64,000 nt of DNA from Escherichia phage anhysbys. The notes under the pieces are model-generated. The model was not told the origin of the DNA. It ran no database searches and saw only the letters and a program-made list of their open reading frames with translations. The stretch lies in the sequence record NC_052656.1; one strand, written 5' to 3'. This document shows positions 4,500 through 56,740 of the stretch, piece by piece (the first letter of the stretch is position 1; each line of letters begins with the position of its first letter). A program made the position numbers and the translations under genes.

Positions 4500-6740
4500 T
4501 CACATCTTGCAAGCTTCACAACCACCATCAGAATCTTCTTGTGCTAAAGAGTCTGCTGATTTTGTTCTACTATTAAGGTAATACAACGACTTACCACCCA
4601 GTCTAGCAAAATTCAGAATAAACTGCATCTCAGCTTTCACTGATAAACGTCCACCTACCAATTTAGAATAATCTAGCCAAGAATCACAAGAAATTCCTTG
4701 GTCCGTAAACTTGGTAAAGATACCATACATTTCTGCAAGGTCTTTAGCAGGAGTGTCCCAGGCGGACTGGTAGAACATTTTCAGTTTTTCGTAGTCTGGA
4801 ACAATAAATAATACACTACCTTTCTGACTTTGTTTATACATAATAGTATCACGAACAGGATACAGAGAGTTAGTAGTATTGCTTACCAAACTGCTGGACT
4901 CATTAGGTGCGATAGCAGCCAAGACACTGTTACGGATACCACCTTGTTCAATGATTTCAGCACGTAAGCCTTCCCAATCCATTTTAAGATCAAAATTACC
5001 GATACTATCTACTGTTTTAGCATAAGTGTCAATTGGTAGCCAACCTTGAGGCCATTTGGTCTTATCGATCCATTCCGCATTACCTTTTTCCTTAGCCAGA
5101 CGCAGAGAGGCTTTTGCCAACCAAAAGTAATGACGTTCTGCAAGTTCATGCATTAATTTTTTAGCATAAGCATCTGAATAATTTACAAAATTACTTGCCA
5201 AGTAATGTGCTAAGTTTGTAATACCTACACCAATAGATCTACGTGCTTTAGCAGTTATTTCGTTATGTTTAAATGGATAATCCATTGTTTCAATAACGTT
5301 GTCAATTGTCAATACAGTGTAGTATGCAACATCCTCATATTCTTCAGGTAAGACACGACCAGCAACAATAGAAGATAAGAAGCATAAAGCCAATTCTTGA
5401 TCTTCTGTATTCTCACCAGTAAAGAGATCCGGCATACTGTGGAAAGCTTTAGTTGGTAAGAAGATCTCTTGACACAGGTTTGATTGATACACCGTATCCA
5501 GGAAAGGTGTATGGTTGTTAACGTTGTCCGCAAAGAACATGTAAATACGTCCTGTTTCTGCACGTTGAACAATAATCTCTGTCAGAAGATCACGAGCCTT
5601 AACAAATTTTTTCTTAATGCGACGACGGCTTACTTTGTCATAAACTGCATCAAACTCTTCTTCACTTTTATACAAAGCTTCATAAAGTTCAGGAGCATCA
5701 TCACAACTAACTAACATCCAATCTTCGTTTTTTGCTGCTCGACGCAAGAACGAACGGTTAACAACAATAGAATAATCCAGTTTGTCTACTCGTTTATCTA
5801 TAGGTGTTGTTGGATTCTTCAGTCGAATCAGATCGTCGAAGTCTGGTTCAAGTATGGTAAAGGTAACTGTAGCACTACCTCCACGGCTTGCTTGCTTCGA
5901 AGCTCCAACACTATCTTCCATCCATTTCAGATACGGAAGAAGACCACCATGAATAATACGATTATTCTTAACACCTTGACCTGTGGCACGAGTTTGAAGA
6001 TTAACACCAATACCTGCGTTATTCAACGTATACTCATGAGCTAAGTAATTAGCAATGGCTAAAGACTCTGCTGTGTCATCTGCACGGAATAAACAACAAG
6101 ACGCACTTCCTTTGATTGGAGTTCGTAGAGTTGTCAGATATGGTGATGGCAGATTAATCTTAAGATCGCTAACATAAGTATACAGTTTTTTAATATCTTC
6201 TATACGGCGTTCTTTTGGTTGGATCTCCATAACCTTCATTGCGATACCAATGAAAAGAAACTGTGGAGACTCATGCACCACATCGTTTACTGCATCTCGG
6301 ATAAGATATTTATCCACCATCTGACGTAAAACAGAATAGCCATAAGTTAGATTTTTATTATGCTTTACAATCTTACCAATTTCTTTGATCTCTTCATCAG
6401 TATAATCCATTTTAGCCCAATGTCCACGTTCTACCATATCATGATAAAAGGTATTCAGTGAAGGGATACTGTGGTATCCCCCATGAGCCTGTTTGTAAAT
6501 CATACCCAGAAGAAGTCTTCCTGCCATATCACTGTAAGCTTGTGTTTTCTTGTCAATACACGCTGCAATCATTGCTTTATGCAGATCACGTGTAGACACA
6601 CCGTCATAACACCGCTTCACAGCTTCTAATTCAATTTCAGACCAGTTTAGTTTACCTGCTGCAAATTCAGACCACTTGCGAAGTTTTTCTGGATTAAACT
6701 CCTCTATCTTACCGTTAGATTTAGTTACAAAACGAATCAA
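4500..6740 (-). CDS. nrdA: ribonucleotide reductase class Ia large subunit (NrdA)
   Basis: 746 aa; active-site region SNLCQEI, C-terminal Cys pair (CEAC), size matches NrdA. Confidence 0.9.
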   Translation of the reverse strand: MIRFVTKSNGKIEEFNPEKLRKWSEFAAGKLNWSEIELEAVKRCYDGVSTRDLHKAMIAACIDKKTQAYSDMAGRLLLGMIYKQAHGGYHSIPSLNTFYHDMVERGHWAKMDYTDEEIKEIGKIVKHNKNLTYGYSVLRQMVDKYLIRDAVNDVVHESPQFLFIGIAMKVMEIQPKERRIEDIKKLYTYVSDLKINLPSPYLTTLRTPIKGSASCCLFRADDTAESLAIANYLAHEYTLNNAGIGVNLQTRATGQGVKNNRIIHGGLLPYLKWMEDSVGASKQASRGGSATVTFTILEPDFDDLIRLKNPTTPIDKRVDKLDYSIVVNRSFLRRAAKNEDWMLVSCDDAPELYEALYKSEEEFDAVYDKVSRRRIKKKFVKARDLLTEIIVQRAETGRIYMFFADNVNNHTPFLDTVYQSNLCQEIFLPTKAFHSMPDLFTGENTEDQELALCFLSSIVAGRVLPEEYEDVAYYTVLTIDNVIETMDYPFKHNEITAKARRSIGVGITNLAHYLASNFVNYSDAYAKKLMHELAERHYFWLAKASLRLAKEKGNAEWIDKTKWPQGWLPIDTYAKTVDSIGNFDLKMDWEGLRAEIIEQGGIRNSVLAAIAPNESSSLVSNTTNSLYPVRDTIMYKQSQKGSVLFIVPDYEKLKMFYQSAWDTPAKDLAEMYGIFTKFTDQGISCDSWLDYSKLVGGRLSVKAEMQFILNFARLGGKSLYYLNSRTKSADSLAQEDSDGGCEACKM

Positions 6741-24477: not shown

Positions 24478-24749
24478 CCAACACAACATTAAGGGCACTG
24501 TGATTGATCGTCGTATCCTGTGCACAAGGTCTGTTCGAAAGACAGTGTTCTTAGTATTGTGTTGATCACACAAAGAGTCACCTGAAACTTGACCGGAGTA
24601 GGGTTGGATGGGGCAAAAGAAGAAGCGGCTCTCCCATCGACAGCAACGAAGAATAATATTTGACTTTGGTTTTGTATTATTTTAAGTTAGCTTACCGAAC
24701 GTAGGGCTAGTCACCCAATGGGATACTCGTCACTGTCCCACTCAATAAA

Positions 24750-24783
24750 ACTATTGACAACCAATAGTAAAATGTAGTATAGT
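24750..24783 (+). promoter_or_regulatory. promoter with conserved ACTATTGACAA -35 element
   Basis: TTGACA at 24754-24759, TATAGT 18 nt downstream; precedes tRNA-Gly. Confidence 0.55.
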
Positions 24784-24794
24784 AAAGATGTAGG

Positions 24795-24865
24795 GCGTTC
24801 TTGGTGTAGCGGTAGCATTCCGTCCTTCCAAGTCGGCGGCACGAGTTCGATCCTCGTAGAACGCT
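24795..24865 (+). tRNA. tRNA-Gly (anticodon TCC)
   Basis: acceptor GCGTTCT/AGAACGC, anticodon loop CTTCCAA, discriminator T, T-arm ACGAG-TTCGATC-CTCGT, CCA. Confidence 0.75.
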
Positions 24866-24966
24866 CCAAATTATTTAATAAAGGGTTGCCAGAAAACTTT
24901 CTCTTTTACTCATGGTTTTCTCCTTCTCTCACACCTCTTCTGGTTGCCCTTCATTAAATGATTTAT

Positions 24967-25039
24967 TGGTTTGTAGTGTAGTCCGGTAGCACACGACACT
25001 TTGACTGTCGTAGGTTTGGTTCAAATCCAGACAGACCAG
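24967..25039 (+). tRNA. tRNA-Gln (anticodon TTG)
   Basis: acceptor TGGTTTG/CAGACCA, anticodon arm CGACA-CTTTGAC-TGTCG, T-loop TTCAAAT, discriminator G, CCA. Confidence 0.8.
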
Positions 25040-25047
25040 CCATATAA

Positions 25048-25121
25048 CGGAATTTAGCTCAGTTTGGTAGAGCATACGCTTTGGGAGCGTAGGGTCGCAG
25101 GTTCGAATCCTGCAATTCCGA
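25048..25121 (+). tRNA. tRNA-Pro (anticodon TGG)
   Basis: acceptor CGGAATT/AATTCCG, D-arm GCTCAGTTTGGTAGAGC, anticodon loop TTTGGGA, T-arm GCAGG-TTCGAAT-CCTGC, CCA. Confidence 0.85.
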
Positions 25122-25130
25122 CCAATCAAA

Positions 25131-25201
25131 TGTTTCGTAGTTCAATGGTAGAACCCACGACTGATAATCGTGAGACACAAGTTCGATTCTTGTCGAAACA
25201 A
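25131..25201 (+). tRNA. tRNA-Ile (anticodon GAT)
   Basis: acceptor TGTTTCG/CGAAACA, anticodon arm CACGA-CTGATAA-TCGTG, T-arm ACAAG-TTCGATT-CTTGT, CCA. Confidence 0.8.
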
Positions 25202-25206
25202 CCAGT

Positions 25207-25276
25207 TTCCCGTTAGACTTACAGGATAAGAGTTCCACAACTTATTGTGATGCTGGTTCGAATCCAGCACGGGATA
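25207..25276 (+). ncRNA. tRNA-like element with 4-nt anticodon-position loop (pseudo-tRNA or structured RNA)
   Basis: perfect T-arm GCTGG-TTCGAAT-CCAGC and 6/7 acceptor pairing, but anticodon-position hairpin is CACAA-CTTA-TTGTG (tetraloop); no encoded CCA. Confidence 0.25.
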
Positions 25277-25282
25277 CATAAT

Positions 25283-25358
25283 AGCGGGATAGAGGAGTCT
25301 GGTCGTCCTCGCCAGTTTCATATGCTGGAGATCATCGGTTCAAATCCGATTCCCGCCT
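25283..25358 (+). tRNA. tRNA-Met (anticodon CAT), second copy; could be initiator or Ile2 type
   Basis: acceptor AGCGGGA/TCCCGCC with A1-C72 mismatch, D-arm GAGG...CCTC, anticodon loop TTCATAT, T-arm ATCGG-TTCAAAT-CCGAT, CCA. Confidence 0.7.
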
Positions 25359-25476
25359 CCAAATATCGCTTGCCAGCGGTATCTTTGAAGACCTTGCCTG
25401 GTTCCTTCTAAGATGGAGGGGTGCGACTCCTTAACGCACAATTATAATAAAGCATTTCAAATTAACAGTATTTATT

Positions 25477-25500
25477 AGCCTCCTTATTGGAGGCTTTTTG
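25477..25500 (+). terminator. intrinsic terminator after tRNA array
   Basis: AGCCTCC-TTATT-GGAGGCT hairpin followed by TTTTT. Confidence 0.7.
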
Positions 25501-54514: not shown

Positions 54515-55144
54515 ATGGCAGTGAGTGTTGACCATGTAACAACTTGGGCCAGTATCAATGAAGATGTTAAAAACCTTCTGATTGAAGATTTTAAATCTTC
54601 TCCTAACATTGTCAAACTCCTCTACATCGTATCCAGTGAAAAGCAAAAGATAGATCAGGCAATGATCTATCTTGCTAAACACCGCTTGATCTCTACAGCC
54701 ACAGGCAAATACCTAGATATCCTAGGGGAAGAAATGGGGATCGAACGTAATGGCTCTGATGATGAAGAGTATAGAACAATATTAAAAATCAGGGCTTACC
54801 GCGTAGCCTCGTCGGGGACTCGTGGTGACATAATTGATATCTTCGCCCGTTTCACAGGAACAGAGCGTGAAACGCTTAATACCTATGTAGGTTTGAATAA
54901 AACCTTTGACGTGTTTTTCTACAACCTGTGTCTTCAATCTGATCAAGCTTTAGAACAGTTGCTAAGTGTTTTTCCTATTATTAGCAGCTACCGTCTTGGA
55001 GCAAAAGCAGGATCAGCTTTTGGTTTTAGTTCTTATTATGCTACCAAACCGCCTCATGGTATTGGTGGTTTAGGTTCCCTGTACATGGAATCTACTGGGG
55101 ATGAAACAGGACGCATGTGTACGCTTCTCAAGCAAATAGATTAA
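54515..55144 (+). CDS. baseplate/tail protein (putative)
   Basis: 209-aa ORF following J-like gene. Confidence 0.4.
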   Translation: MAVSVDHVTTWASINEDVKNLLIEDFKSSPNIVKLLYIVSSEKQKIDQAMIYLAKHRLISTATGKYLDILGEEMGIERNGSDDEEYRTILKIRAYRVASSGTRGDIIDIFARFTGTERETLNTYVGLNKTFDVFFYNLCLQSDQALEQLLSVFPIISSYRLGAKAGSAFGFSSYYATKPPHGIGGLGSLYMESTGDETGRMCTLLKQID

Positions 55145-55153
55145 GGAGTTTAA

Positions 55154-56185
55154 ATGGCGAAGCCAATATATTATCCTGACTGGGCTACACAAACTGTAAC
55201 GCTCCCAGGAACTTTAAACACAAACAAAATTAGACCTAAAGAAACTATCCGCGCAGTCGGTATGGACTATGGTCAGATCATGACTTGCGAAGAAATGAAC
55301 TGGATTCTTAATAACATCGGTTTGTGGATTCGTTATTTGGTTGATGATTTTATTCCTACTTTACCTAATACTTACTTGCCTTTAGTGGGAACTAAGATTA
55401 CAATGGCTGGTGATGCTACTGGTGAGGCTACTTGGAATGGTGATAAAGAAGTTATTTTATCTATACAAGTTCAAGATAACAGCCATAATCACTTATCGGC
55501 AAACATTACAGACGCTACTAGTTCAATAGTAAAACCAAATGTATTGGTAAAACGTGATGCAGGTGGTGCTATTTACGGTGGTGATATTTATGTTAATGGC
55601 ACTTCCACAACAGATCCTGCAACCCTGTTCTTCAAAAACTTTGCAGGACAAACAAATGGTGAGATTTCTGCCGAGTATCAAACCGGAGGCCAGCTTTACA
55701 TCTATCGTAGAAATCCTAGCACAGGTGGCATTGCGGCTGGCGTTCGTTTATATGATGCTGGTTATGTTCTAATTGACAATCCAAGATCGAATAGTGGACA
55801 AGATACTTCAAACGGAAATGCTTTGGTCCGCTTAGATTATTTGAACTCTCGTTTAAGCTCTCTTCAAAATACATTACAAACAAACATTAACAGCGTTCAA
55901 AATAATTTGAATAATGTTAATAGTAATTTAAATTCTCGTATTGATAATTTGCAAAACAGCTTACAAAGTCAAATAAACTCGCTTCAAAGTCAAGTGAATG
56001 CACGTGTAACGGCAGTTCGTATTAATGGACGTATTCAGTTAGGTGTATCAGAATCCCCTTACTATGCTGGTCACGTTATGACTGGTTGGGCTTTCGGTAA
56101 TAAGAAAGAACTTCGTGGTGCTTCTTATTGGTCTGGACCATTGCAATACTATGTAAATGGTGGATGGGTAACAGTAAGCTACTAA
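55154..56185 (+). CDS. tail fibre protein
   Basis: 343 aa; Asn/Gln/Ser-rich heptad-like repeats (LQNTLQTNINSVQNNLNNVNSNLNSRIDNLQNSLQSQINSLQSQV); followed by assembly chaperone. Confidence 0.55.
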   Translation: MAKPIYYPDWATQTVTLPGTLNTNKIRPKETIRAVGMDYGQIMTCEEMNWILNNIGLWIRYLVDDFIPTLPNTYLPLVGTKITMAGDATGEATWNGDKEVILSIQVQDNSHNHLSANITDATSSIVKPNVLVKRDAGGAIYGGDIYVNGTSTTDPATLFFKNFAGQTNGEISAEYQTGGQLYIYRRNPSTGGIAAGVRLYDAGYVLIDNPRSNSGQDTSNGNALVRLDYLNSRLSSLQNTLQTNINSVQNNLNNVNSNLNSRIDNLQNSLQSQINSLQSQVNARVTAVRINGRIQLGVSESPYYAGHVMTGWAFGNKKELRGASYWSGPLQYYVNGGWVTVSY

Positions 56186-56200
56186 GTAGGAGAATAAATA

Positions 56201-56740
56201 ATGAATATTGTTTACGATGGTTTTGAACTATATACTCCAGAACCTAATGAAGATACGCTCTTTTTAATTGGTTTAGGGGTAGGATTTTTAAGAGATTCCT
56301 CTGGCAGGGATTGGTATGATTTGTCGAAAGAGTTAGATGCTAAGTATCCTGATGCATATTTTGTTAGTTTAAATACTGATAACTTAGTCTTAGGTGTAGG
56401 GGAAGATGCAGTAGGATTATTCCCCCACAATATGCGTGTTGTTGTTACAGATAGTGTTCCAAAAGGTATGACCGAATATCCAAGACAATGGAGATATAAC
56501 GGAACAACTTTTGAAAAACATAATACTTGGACACAAGAAGATGTGGATACCACGTTAGAGACAGAATTGACGTGGGCTGGAAACCAAATAGGTGCTTTGA
56601 CAGATTTGCAAGAGTTACAAGGTCTGTCAGAGGAACAAGAAAAATGGTTAAAAGCTGTTAAGTTATATCGAGCATCTTTAGTTCTATTAGATCTGAAAGA
56701 CTTGAACAACATTCAATGGCCTGATAGACCTACTCAGTAA
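56201..56740 (+). CDS. tail fibre assembly chaperone (Tfa-like)
   Basis: 179 aa directly after fibre gene; C-terminal ...NNIQWPDRPTQ resembles the conserved Tfa C-terminus. Confidence 0.5.
   Translation: MNIVYDGFELYTPEPNEDTLFLIGLGVGFLRDSSGRDWYDLSKELDAKYPDAYFVSLNTDNLVLGVGEDAVGLFPHNMRVVVTDSVPKGMTEYPRQWRYNGTTFEKHNTWTQEDVDTTLETELTWAGNQIGALTDLQELQGLSEEQEKWLKAVKLYRASLVLLDLKDLNNIQWPDRPTQ

Follow-up and report, generated by a model that had tools for sequence, protein, structure and literature searches.

The genome of Escherichia phage anhysbys (sequence record NC_052656.1), analyzed here as a window of 64,000 nucleotides (nt), carries at positions 25207-25276 a real, conserved tRNA-shaped gene that has neither a usable anticodon loop nor an encoded CCA end. 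This element is tRNA-derived, is unable to decode, and belongs to a family that conserves the tRNA shape but not the anticodon loop. The initial annotation of the window had described a tRNA-like cloverleaf in which the T arm is perfect and 6 of 7 acceptor positions pair, with a D-like hairpin CTTA/TAAG and, at the anticodon position, a hairpin with a 4-nt loop, and had pointed out that no CCA is encoded, unlike in the 12 canonical tRNAs nearby; each of these features was recovered in our reading of the sequence. The parts of the element are as follows (A2, an alignment of 20 distinct family members made with MAFFT).

25207-25276, plus strand: whole element, a tRNA-shaped cloverleaf, read base by base
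25207-25213, plus strand: 5' strand of the acceptor, TTCCCGT (sequence, minimum-energy fold, covariation in 6 of 7 family acceptor pairs)
25214-25215, plus strand: U8-A9 connector, invariant across the family (A2)
25216-25232, plus strand: D arm, GACTTA-CAGGA-TAAGAG (sequence, fold, alignment)
25233-25235, plus strand: 3-nt linker TTC, replacing the single tRNA position 26; 25233 is a T/A polymorphism
25236-25249, plus strand: hairpin at the anticodon position, CACAA-CTTA-TTGTG, 14 nt as compared to 17 nt in tRNA
25250-25251, plus strand: variable region AT, 2 nt as compared to the usual 4-5 nt (alignment)
25252-25268, plus strand: canonical T arm, GCTGG-TTCGAAT-CCAGC (sequence, fold; the T stem is 100% paired family-wide, with 2 covarying pairs)
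25269-25275, plus strand: 3' strand of the acceptor, ACGGGAT (sequence, minimum-energy fold, family covariation)
25276-25279, plus strand: discriminator A25276 followed by CAT, where CCA stands in relatives and in all neighboring tRNAs

In the acceptor, only the 1:72 pair fails to form (U·U). The firm pairs of the D hairpin are those between CTTA (25218-25221) and TAAG (25227-25230), which enclose the loop CAGGA with G18G19 at 25224-25225, while positions 10:25 and 11:24 are mismatched in this copy and in the other copies of its genus, Phapecoctavirus. The hairpin at the anticodon position consists of CACAA (25236-25240), the loop CTTA (25241-25244) and TTGTG (25245-25249), and the T arm of GCTGG (25252-25256), TTCGAAT (25257-25263) and CCAGC (25264-25268). 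At the 3' end, A-CAT stands in place of the CCA that is encoded by 12 of 12 tRNA-type genes in the surrounding cluster.

The unconstrained minimum-energy fold of the 78-nt stretch is the cloverleaf (-22.9 kcal/mol; z = -3.3), and 1 of 200 shuffled sequences folded as well. A normal 7-nt anticodon loop in an alternative fold had been named in the initial annotation as a result that would refute it; an exhaustive search of the interval between the D and T arms found no stem of at least 3 pairs closing such a loop. When stems closing loops of 6 to 9 nt were enumerated, only loops of 6 or 8 nt were obtained, by opening the hairpin's own pairs. ARAGORN called no tRNA at this site, and the covariance-model scan that had been proposed as a check left the element undetected by the general tRNA model of Rfam (RF00005), at the gathering level as well as with filters relaxed and a limit of E ≤ 10. 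No match of any Rfam family overlapped 25207-25279 at E ≤ 10. The element shares with canonical tRNA the cloverleaf, U8-A9, G18G19 in the D loop, a GGTTCGAATCC T arm whose loop carries T54-Ψ55-C56, and a position in a tRNA operon immediately behind another tRNA. Its acceptor is of the 7-base-pair (bp) type, with 6 of 7 pairs formed and U·U at 1:72. Unlike canonical tRNA, it has a 14-nt arm with a 4-nt loop in place of a 7-nt loop with U33 and an anticodon, a 3-nt linker in place of a single position 26, a 2-nt variable region in place of 4-5 nt and no encoded CCA, and it stays below the detection threshold. Nor could an aminoacylation identity be supported; no synthetase can be assigned to the element because close relatives have either A or G as the discriminator, G3·U70 is absent and there is no long variable arm.

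Conservation among related phages, which had been proposed as a further test, was found in 69 Phapecoctavirus genomes and, through homologues, in at least 5 other phage lineages. The window itself represents a Phapecoctavirus genome, 100% identical to Escherichia phage dw-ec over the tested region and 98-99% identical to phAPEC8 and approx. 65 other records. BLAST searches located the element in 69 of 69 Phapecoctavirus records (95-100% identity), and it was unannotated in every one of those inspected. The same searches identified homologues in A7_1, A73 and W70 (85.7% identity; E = 6e-14 for A7_1), in UPEC06 and LTH01 (81%), and in the siphovirus phiEB49 (78.6%), where the copy is annotated as tRNA-Val. 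Onward searches and searches with a D-arm/T-loop pattern added Klebsiella phages 05F01 (Stephanstirmvirinae) and NDO71 (Mydovirus) as well as Enterobacter phages SABI and SonariX. Homologues are also carried by the N4-like Gamaleyavirus members IME11, PBM-3, E20, CU10EC and about 15 more (labeled "tRNA-OTHER" in some records), and by Kaypoctavirus KP8 (labeled "tRNA-Leu"); most family records carry no annotation of the element at all. Carriers span Stephanstirmvirinae, Vequintavirinae, Schitoviridae and Drexlerviridae, with the A7_1-like and Mydovirus homologues lying in Vequintavirinae tRNA clusters. The KP8 locus additionally contains another irregular tRNA (locus coordinates 351-425), to which ARAGORN assigns a 2-base "anticodon" and which the record labels tRNA-OTHER, and, just downstream of the KP8 family member, a weak permuted tmRNA match (755-857; 33 bits, below threshold).

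Outside phages, a pattern scan of one genome each of 185,579 bacterial and archaeal species returned 3 unrelated matches and no counterpart, and BLAST found no match in 5,426 complete E. coli genomes; a host origin of the element was rejected on these grounds. A relaxed D-arm and T-loop pattern retrieved 60 further loci from IMG/VR, all of them ordinary tRNAs (≤47 bits), and a metagenome scan gave nothing beyond contigs of the known carrier phage types and unrelated sequences. Because the bacterial, archaeal, E. coli and IMG/VR scans gave no comparable element, the family is phage-borne; it is limited to phages of Enterobacteriaceae and common to virus families that otherwise have no nucleotide similarity. 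Two jumbo-phage contigs in IMG/VR (893-970; 5773-5850) carry CAT tRNAs with a similar GGCTTAnnGG D arm, which seem to lack the two bases that normally join the acceptor stem to the D stem; these were excluded from the family (41 bits).

Features found in all members are U8-A9, a D arm of the form UAGRCUUAnnGGnnAAG that includes G18G19, and a linker of 3 nt. A hairpin occupies the anticodon position, the variable region spans just 2-3 nt, the T arm is of textbook form, and the acceptor nearly always starts with U1-A72. In A2, in a second alignment of 25 members fitted to the family model (A4) and in folds of individual members, the window element shows the D-arm motif, the 3-nt linker, a hairpin loop of other than 7 nt and the short variable region. 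The arm at the anticodon position takes the following forms.

Phapecoctavirus: 5 bp and a 3-4-nt loop
A7_1 and UPEC06: 7 bp and a 3-nt loop
KP8 and NDO71: 7 bp and the loop GGCA, or 5 bp and 8 nt once the inner pairs open
Gamaleyavirus: 5 bp and a 6-nt loop
SABI and 05F01: 5 bp and a 9-nt loop (RACUUAAGA)
phiEB49: a weak stem and a 7-nt loop

Loops of 3-9 nt, in irregular or closed arms, are thus present in nearly all relatives, and the 4-nt loop of the window element is one version of a family trait, i.e., the replacement of the anticodon loop by a structure unable to present an anticodon, and not a private lesion. We also considered whether palindromic loops (CUUAAG in SABI and 05F01, CAUG in KP8 and NDO71) might serve as kissing-dimer sites; these are not family-wide, and the idea was dropped. 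Only the phiEB49 copy was called by ARAGORN, as Val(AAC). With the Rfam tRNA model (threshold 29 bits), the copies of PBM-3, SABI, 05F01 and phiEB49 scored 40.7, 33.3, 27.9 and 24.6 bits, respectively, and those of KP8, A7_1, phAPEC8 and the window gave no match.

A covariance model of the family (R1) separated its members (72-90 bits) from true tRNAs (≤42 bits). Across the 33 sources scanned with R1 (the window and 32 loci), exactly one copy was found per element-bearing phage locus, always in a tRNA cluster. A second model built without any Phapecoctavirus sequence (R2) scored the window element at 61.9 bits (E = 1e-13; the E-values of both models are rough), the best match in the 64 kb, as compared to ≤43.1 bits for true tRNAs. 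The element is more than a chance structure because it has homologues in other phage lineages and is the top match of a model that had not seen its own clade. Two potential tRNA sources were also considered and rejected. A tandem duplication of the neighboring tRNA-Ile(GAT) is suggested by similar anticodon arms (CCACGACTGATAATCGTGA versus CCACAACTTATTGTGA), but the remainder is mismatched; with the family models, tRNA-Ile reaches no more than 41-43 bits. Likewise, the tRNA-Met gene in the equivalent slot of Justusliebigvirus PHB05, of which the element could have been a decayed orthologue, scores 15.6 bits on R1.

Standard pairs occupied 89% of the pair cells in A2 and A4, as compared to 44-45% (45% in A2) when partners were slid by one column. 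Changes on both sides were observed in 11 of 23 pairs; the acceptor accounts for 6 of its 7 pairs, the anticodon stem for 3 of 5 and the T stem for 2 of 5. None of 500 shuffles reached the observed covariation score. Compensatory changes were also evident between individual lineages. The window element has C3-G70 and G49-C65 where A7_1 has U-A and A-U, respectively; KP8 and NDO71 differ by two compensated anticodon-stem pairs around the identical loop region CAGGCAUG; and IME11 has A6-U67 where other Gamaleyavirus copies have G-C. As such changes separate lineages that are both already non-decoding, the comparison of these sequences argues that pairing was kept up after decoding was lost.

Judged from its sequence, the Phapecoctavirus copy is the most degenerate member of the family. 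Confined to this genus are the unpaired 1:72, the mismatches at both 10:25 and 11:24, the shortening of the arm at the anticodon position to 13-14 nt, and the replacement of CCA by CAT, CCT or CCC. All members examined from outside Phapecoctavirus pair 1:72 (U-A in 14 of 25 aligned members, G-C in phiEB49), and CCA is encoded by most of them, with some Gamaleyavirus copies and the A7_1 type as exceptions. Base-by-base reading of the copies from 16 of the 69 Phapecoctavirus genomes showed U·C at 1:72 in 3 genomes and U·U otherwise; the loop occurred as CTTA, TTTA, CTA and TTT, with one-base deletions producing a triloop in two genomes. All 7 variants shared by at least 2 of these 16 genomes were unpaired or changed A-U to G·U; as 40 of 73 positions are paired, the neutral chance of this pattern is approx. 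P = 0.01, a rough estimate from a small sample. The two stem-breaking substitutions, a T-loop insertion and a G18-to-A change, on the other hand, each occurred in a single genome only.

The element lies in a cluster of 12 tRNA-type genes (23439-25361), 10 of which were called by ARAGORN, with a Tyr-like and a Ser(TGA)/Sec-like gene added by Rfam. It belongs to a unit that runs, in order, promoter, Gly, Gln, Pro, Ile, element, tRNA(CAT), structured trailer and terminator. In A7_1, UPEC06, SABI and phiEB49, the homologue likewise starts 1-3 nt after an upstream CCA. The features that delimit the unit and flank the element are given below.

24754-24783, plus strand: sigma-70-like promoter TTGACA-18-TATAGT (11 of 12 consensus matches; a consensus match only)
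25131-25204, plus strand: tRNA-Ile(GAT), found by ARAGORN and Rfam; its CCA ends 2 nt upstream of the element
25283-25361, plus strand: unusual tRNA(CAT), starting 6 nt past the discriminator of the element; "pseudo-CAT" in some records
25477-25495, plus strand: intrinsic terminator, a hairpin and T run that closes the unit; annotated also in phage ASO2A

All three explanations offered in the initial annotation, i.e., a decayed tRNA, a processing or structural element of the polycistronic transcript, and a tRNA mimic, are still live after the conservation and folding analyses. We tentatively favor, with somewhat less than even confidence, the explanation that the element is a tRNA-derived, non-decoding RNA kept for its tRNA shape, which acts in cis as a partly degenerate processing or structural module. 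Under this hypothesis, the element would be transcribed within the polycistronic tRNA precursor, where RNase P would still recognize it and cut its 5' end, freeing tRNA-Ile with a 2-nt 3' trailer and splitting off the downstream tRNA. Selection would hold the tRNA shape as a "punctuation" module, and the anticodon loop, the discriminator and CCA would be free to drift. RNase P recognizes its substrates by the acceptor/T helix and the elbow and does not read the anticodon arm. In E. coli, this enzyme is sufficient to separate the tRNAs of some polycistronic transcripts; phage T4 tRNAs without an encoded CCA are matured by E. coli RNase BN and the CCA-adding enzyme. Judging from its shape, the element is probably still cut by RNase P at its 5' end because the parts that are read, the acceptor/T helix and the G18G19/T-loop elbow, survive.

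Several observations weigh against a processing role. No block of the cluster is more polymorphic than the element, which has 14 of 74 variable columns among the 16 genomes as compared to 1 of 74 for tRNA-Ile. Of the 69 records, only 2 match the window exactly over the element, as compared to 44 over the tRNA-Ile block; for the trailer block downstream, the figure is 58. Its pairwise divergence (1.4-4.1%) is at or above the local background of approx. 1-1.5%. Pair counts from A4 are biased towards structure because that alignment was fitted to the model, although the same numbers were obtained with A2. No copy is present in the sister genus Justusliebigvirus, and the element is thus dispensable for a working tRNA cluster. 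Finally, the primary sequence of the D arm is near-invariant across phage families and most other members encode CCA; these features exceed the needs of a mere RNase P handle and hint at a sequence-specific partner.

A rival explanation is a plain pseudogene, that is, a dead and functionless copy of a horizontally acquired phage tRNA-like gene that is carried within an essential tRNA operon and whose stems persist only because too little time has elapsed. The high polymorphism, the divergence near background and the absence from Justusliebigvirus favor this explanation, as do the lesions found only in this lineage (U1·U72, loss of CCA, the mismatches at 10:25 and 11:24, the arm of 13-14 nt), the single genomes with G18-to-A, a D-stem break, a T-stem break or a T-loop insertion, and the mosaic nature of the cluster, where tRNA genes are often gained and lost. 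We nevertheless regard a plain pseudogene as somewhat unlikely. Every one of the 69 Phapecoctavirus records has retained the element, the 7 shared polymorphisms leave all pairs intact, and the damaging changes are each confined to a single genome, as purifying selection predicts. Moreover, stem pairs have changed in compensation relative to the equally non-decoding A7_1 copy, and irregular or closed anticodon arms recur in every lineage with the other three arms intact, which is not the pattern of random decay. Plain decay also fits poorly with the covariation seen across the family.

A second rival is a tRNA mimic acting in trans, i.e., a stable processed RNA that would serve as a decoy or sponge for a protein recognizing the tRNA body, such as a host defense nuclease or toxin that targets tRNA, or an enzyme of tRNA processing or modification. 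Lacking an anticodon loop, such a mimic would neither be cleavable at the anticodon nor disturb decoding. This explanation is consistent with the spread of the family over unrelated phage groups that share only enterobacterial hosts, the lack of a counterpart in the species genomes and E. coli genomes searched, the near-invariant D-arm sequence and elbow, the discriminator and CCA encoded by most members outside Phapecoctavirus, and the irregular loop that KP8 and NDO71 share although the stem around it differs by two compensatory changes. An Rnl1-like RNA ligase and a phosphatase are encoded approx. 5 kb upstream of the cluster, which makes conflict over tRNA a relevant matter for these phages. 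On the other hand, even close relatives differ in having A or G as the discriminator, CCA has become TCA or TTA within Gamaleyavirus and CAT, CCT or CCC in Phapecoctavirus, and our literature search found no description of the element or the family. The explanation is weakest for the Phapecoctavirus copy, which evolves fast and whose anticodon-arm loop is unconstrained, and we consider it unlikely for the element. A broader version, under which at least 4 unrelated enterobacterial phage lineages would exchange and maintain an "anticodon-less tRNA" mimic that acts in trans and preserves the surface of acceptor, T arm and elbow while its anticodon loop is closed or scrambled, with 25207-25276 and a second tRNA-shaped element at 24323-24400 as two instances in one operon, appears doubtful as well.

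A working tRNA with an unconventional anticodon loop, e.g., a frameshift or recoding suppressor, is highly improbable. The 8-9-nt loops of KP8, NDO71, SABI and 05F01 have sizes known from +1 frameshift suppressors such as SufB2 and SufJ, and the phiEB49 copy is called as Val(AAC); however, even that copy stays under the Rfam tRNA threshold (24.6 versus 29 bits), and the window loop is, unlike those of the suppressors, contracted to 4 nt (6 or 8 nt only with stem pairs opened) and polymorphic in length (3-4 nt within Phapecoctavirus). The window element also lacks CCA, a 1:72 pair and a U33-purine37 frame.

Several known RNAs resemble the element in part. mascRNA and the tRNA-like RNAs of MHV68 are tRNA-shaped, non-decoding RNAs with an atypical anticodon loop that are excised by tRNA-processing enzymes; they are eukaryotic or derive from a eukaryotic virus, and CCA is added to them after processing. 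Their likeness to the element lies in the proposed working, with no sequence or model relationship. Among Rfam families, mascRNA, the tRNA-like domain of tmRNA and YrlA (Y-RNA-like) gave no match at the element, and the RF01684 match in the window concerns a true tRNA only. Phage T4 species 1 and 2 (rnaC, rnaD) are stable RNAs of roughly 120-140 nt in the T4 tRNA cluster that are co-processed with tRNAs and are not cloverleaves; like the element, they are non-tRNA RNA genes inside a phage tRNA operon. Separation of transcripts by tRNA units, as proposed for the element, is known from the mitochondrial punctuation model, and the E. coli valV-valW and leuQPV operons are separated by RNase P alone; the known punctuating units are functional tRNAs or mitochondrial relics, and to our knowledge no dedicated anticodon-less punctuating unit has been described in a phage operon. 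The protein-RNA system AcrIIIA1 was considered as an analogue and set aside, as it concerns host tRNA fragments. In Bacillus cereus, tRNA-Other is reported to be a tRNA-derived, retained, non-translational RNA; it is encoded by a chromosomal gene with a reported regulatory phenotype (PMC3399842). On that description, the element is likewise retained without decoding but differs in being phage-borne and in having a closed anticodon arm.

Phage tRNA clusters are usually read as sets for codon supply or anti-defense, and whatever gene finders miss in them is treated as spacer. Here, such unannotated "spacer" belongs to a covariation-supported family of tRNA shape that is non-decoding, found only in phages and moved between phage families. 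These genes systematically escape annotation pipelines, and the numbers given for these genomes, both of tRNAs per phage and of "intergenic" DNA, are correspondingly off. If the family marks processing sites only, it illustrates how dead tRNAs are retained in phage tRNA operons to serve as RNase P handles; a family acting in trans would parallel, in bacterial viruses, the tRNA-like RNAs of eukaryotic viruses and would add a new participant to the conflict over host tRNA.

The second unannotated tRNA-shaped element (24323-24400, plus strand) lies between tRNA-Asn and tRNA-Thr. It has the acceptor GGACTTG/CGAGTCC, a closed and extended anticodon arm (CCAG-TC-GCC-AAGA-GGC-TT-CTGG), an 8-nt T loop and no CCA; the z score of its minimum-energy fold is -3.0 and it scores 19-20 bits on the family model. 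This second element is 95-100% conserved in 86 phage records, including Justusliebigvirus, and is unannotated among the 30 matches listed.

The RNA ligase gene mentioned above stands beside a metallophosphatase gene approx. 5 kb upstream of the tRNA cluster in the annotated relative ASO2A (55047-56532); by offset from ASO2A, the pair would be located at approx. 17.3-18.8 kb in the window. The two genes likely form a tRNA-repair pair, and their presence suggests that these phages meet anticodon nucleases.

The composition of the cluster varies among genomes, with Tyr+Asn, Pro and other blocks swapped for divergent alleles in some of them. The cluster of Justusliebigvirus contains Lys, Phe, Leu and an extra Met, and its Ile gene is placed after the trailer. 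In phAPEC8 and about a dozen relatives, tRNA-Gln and tRNA-Pro are separated by an additional 88 nt, an insert that is absent from the window (locus positions 1944-2036 in phAPEC8, corresponding to 25043-25047 in the window) and has no Rfam match.

Downstream of the element, the tRNA(CAT) gene is 79 nt long; its D stem comprises 5 bp, and one additional base precedes its CCA. Because its T stem shows a compensatory C-G to T-A change among Phapecoctavirus genomes, this tRNA is probably functional; it is perhaps an Ile2-type or an elongator CAT tRNA. The trailer that follows (25362-25476, plus strand) is more conserved than the element and has a fold z score of -3.2. A search with its first 82 nt (25362-25443) found 58 Phapecoctavirus-level records to be identical and 62 further records, including Justusliebigvirus, to match at 90-95%; the trailer may be a small RNA or another processing element.

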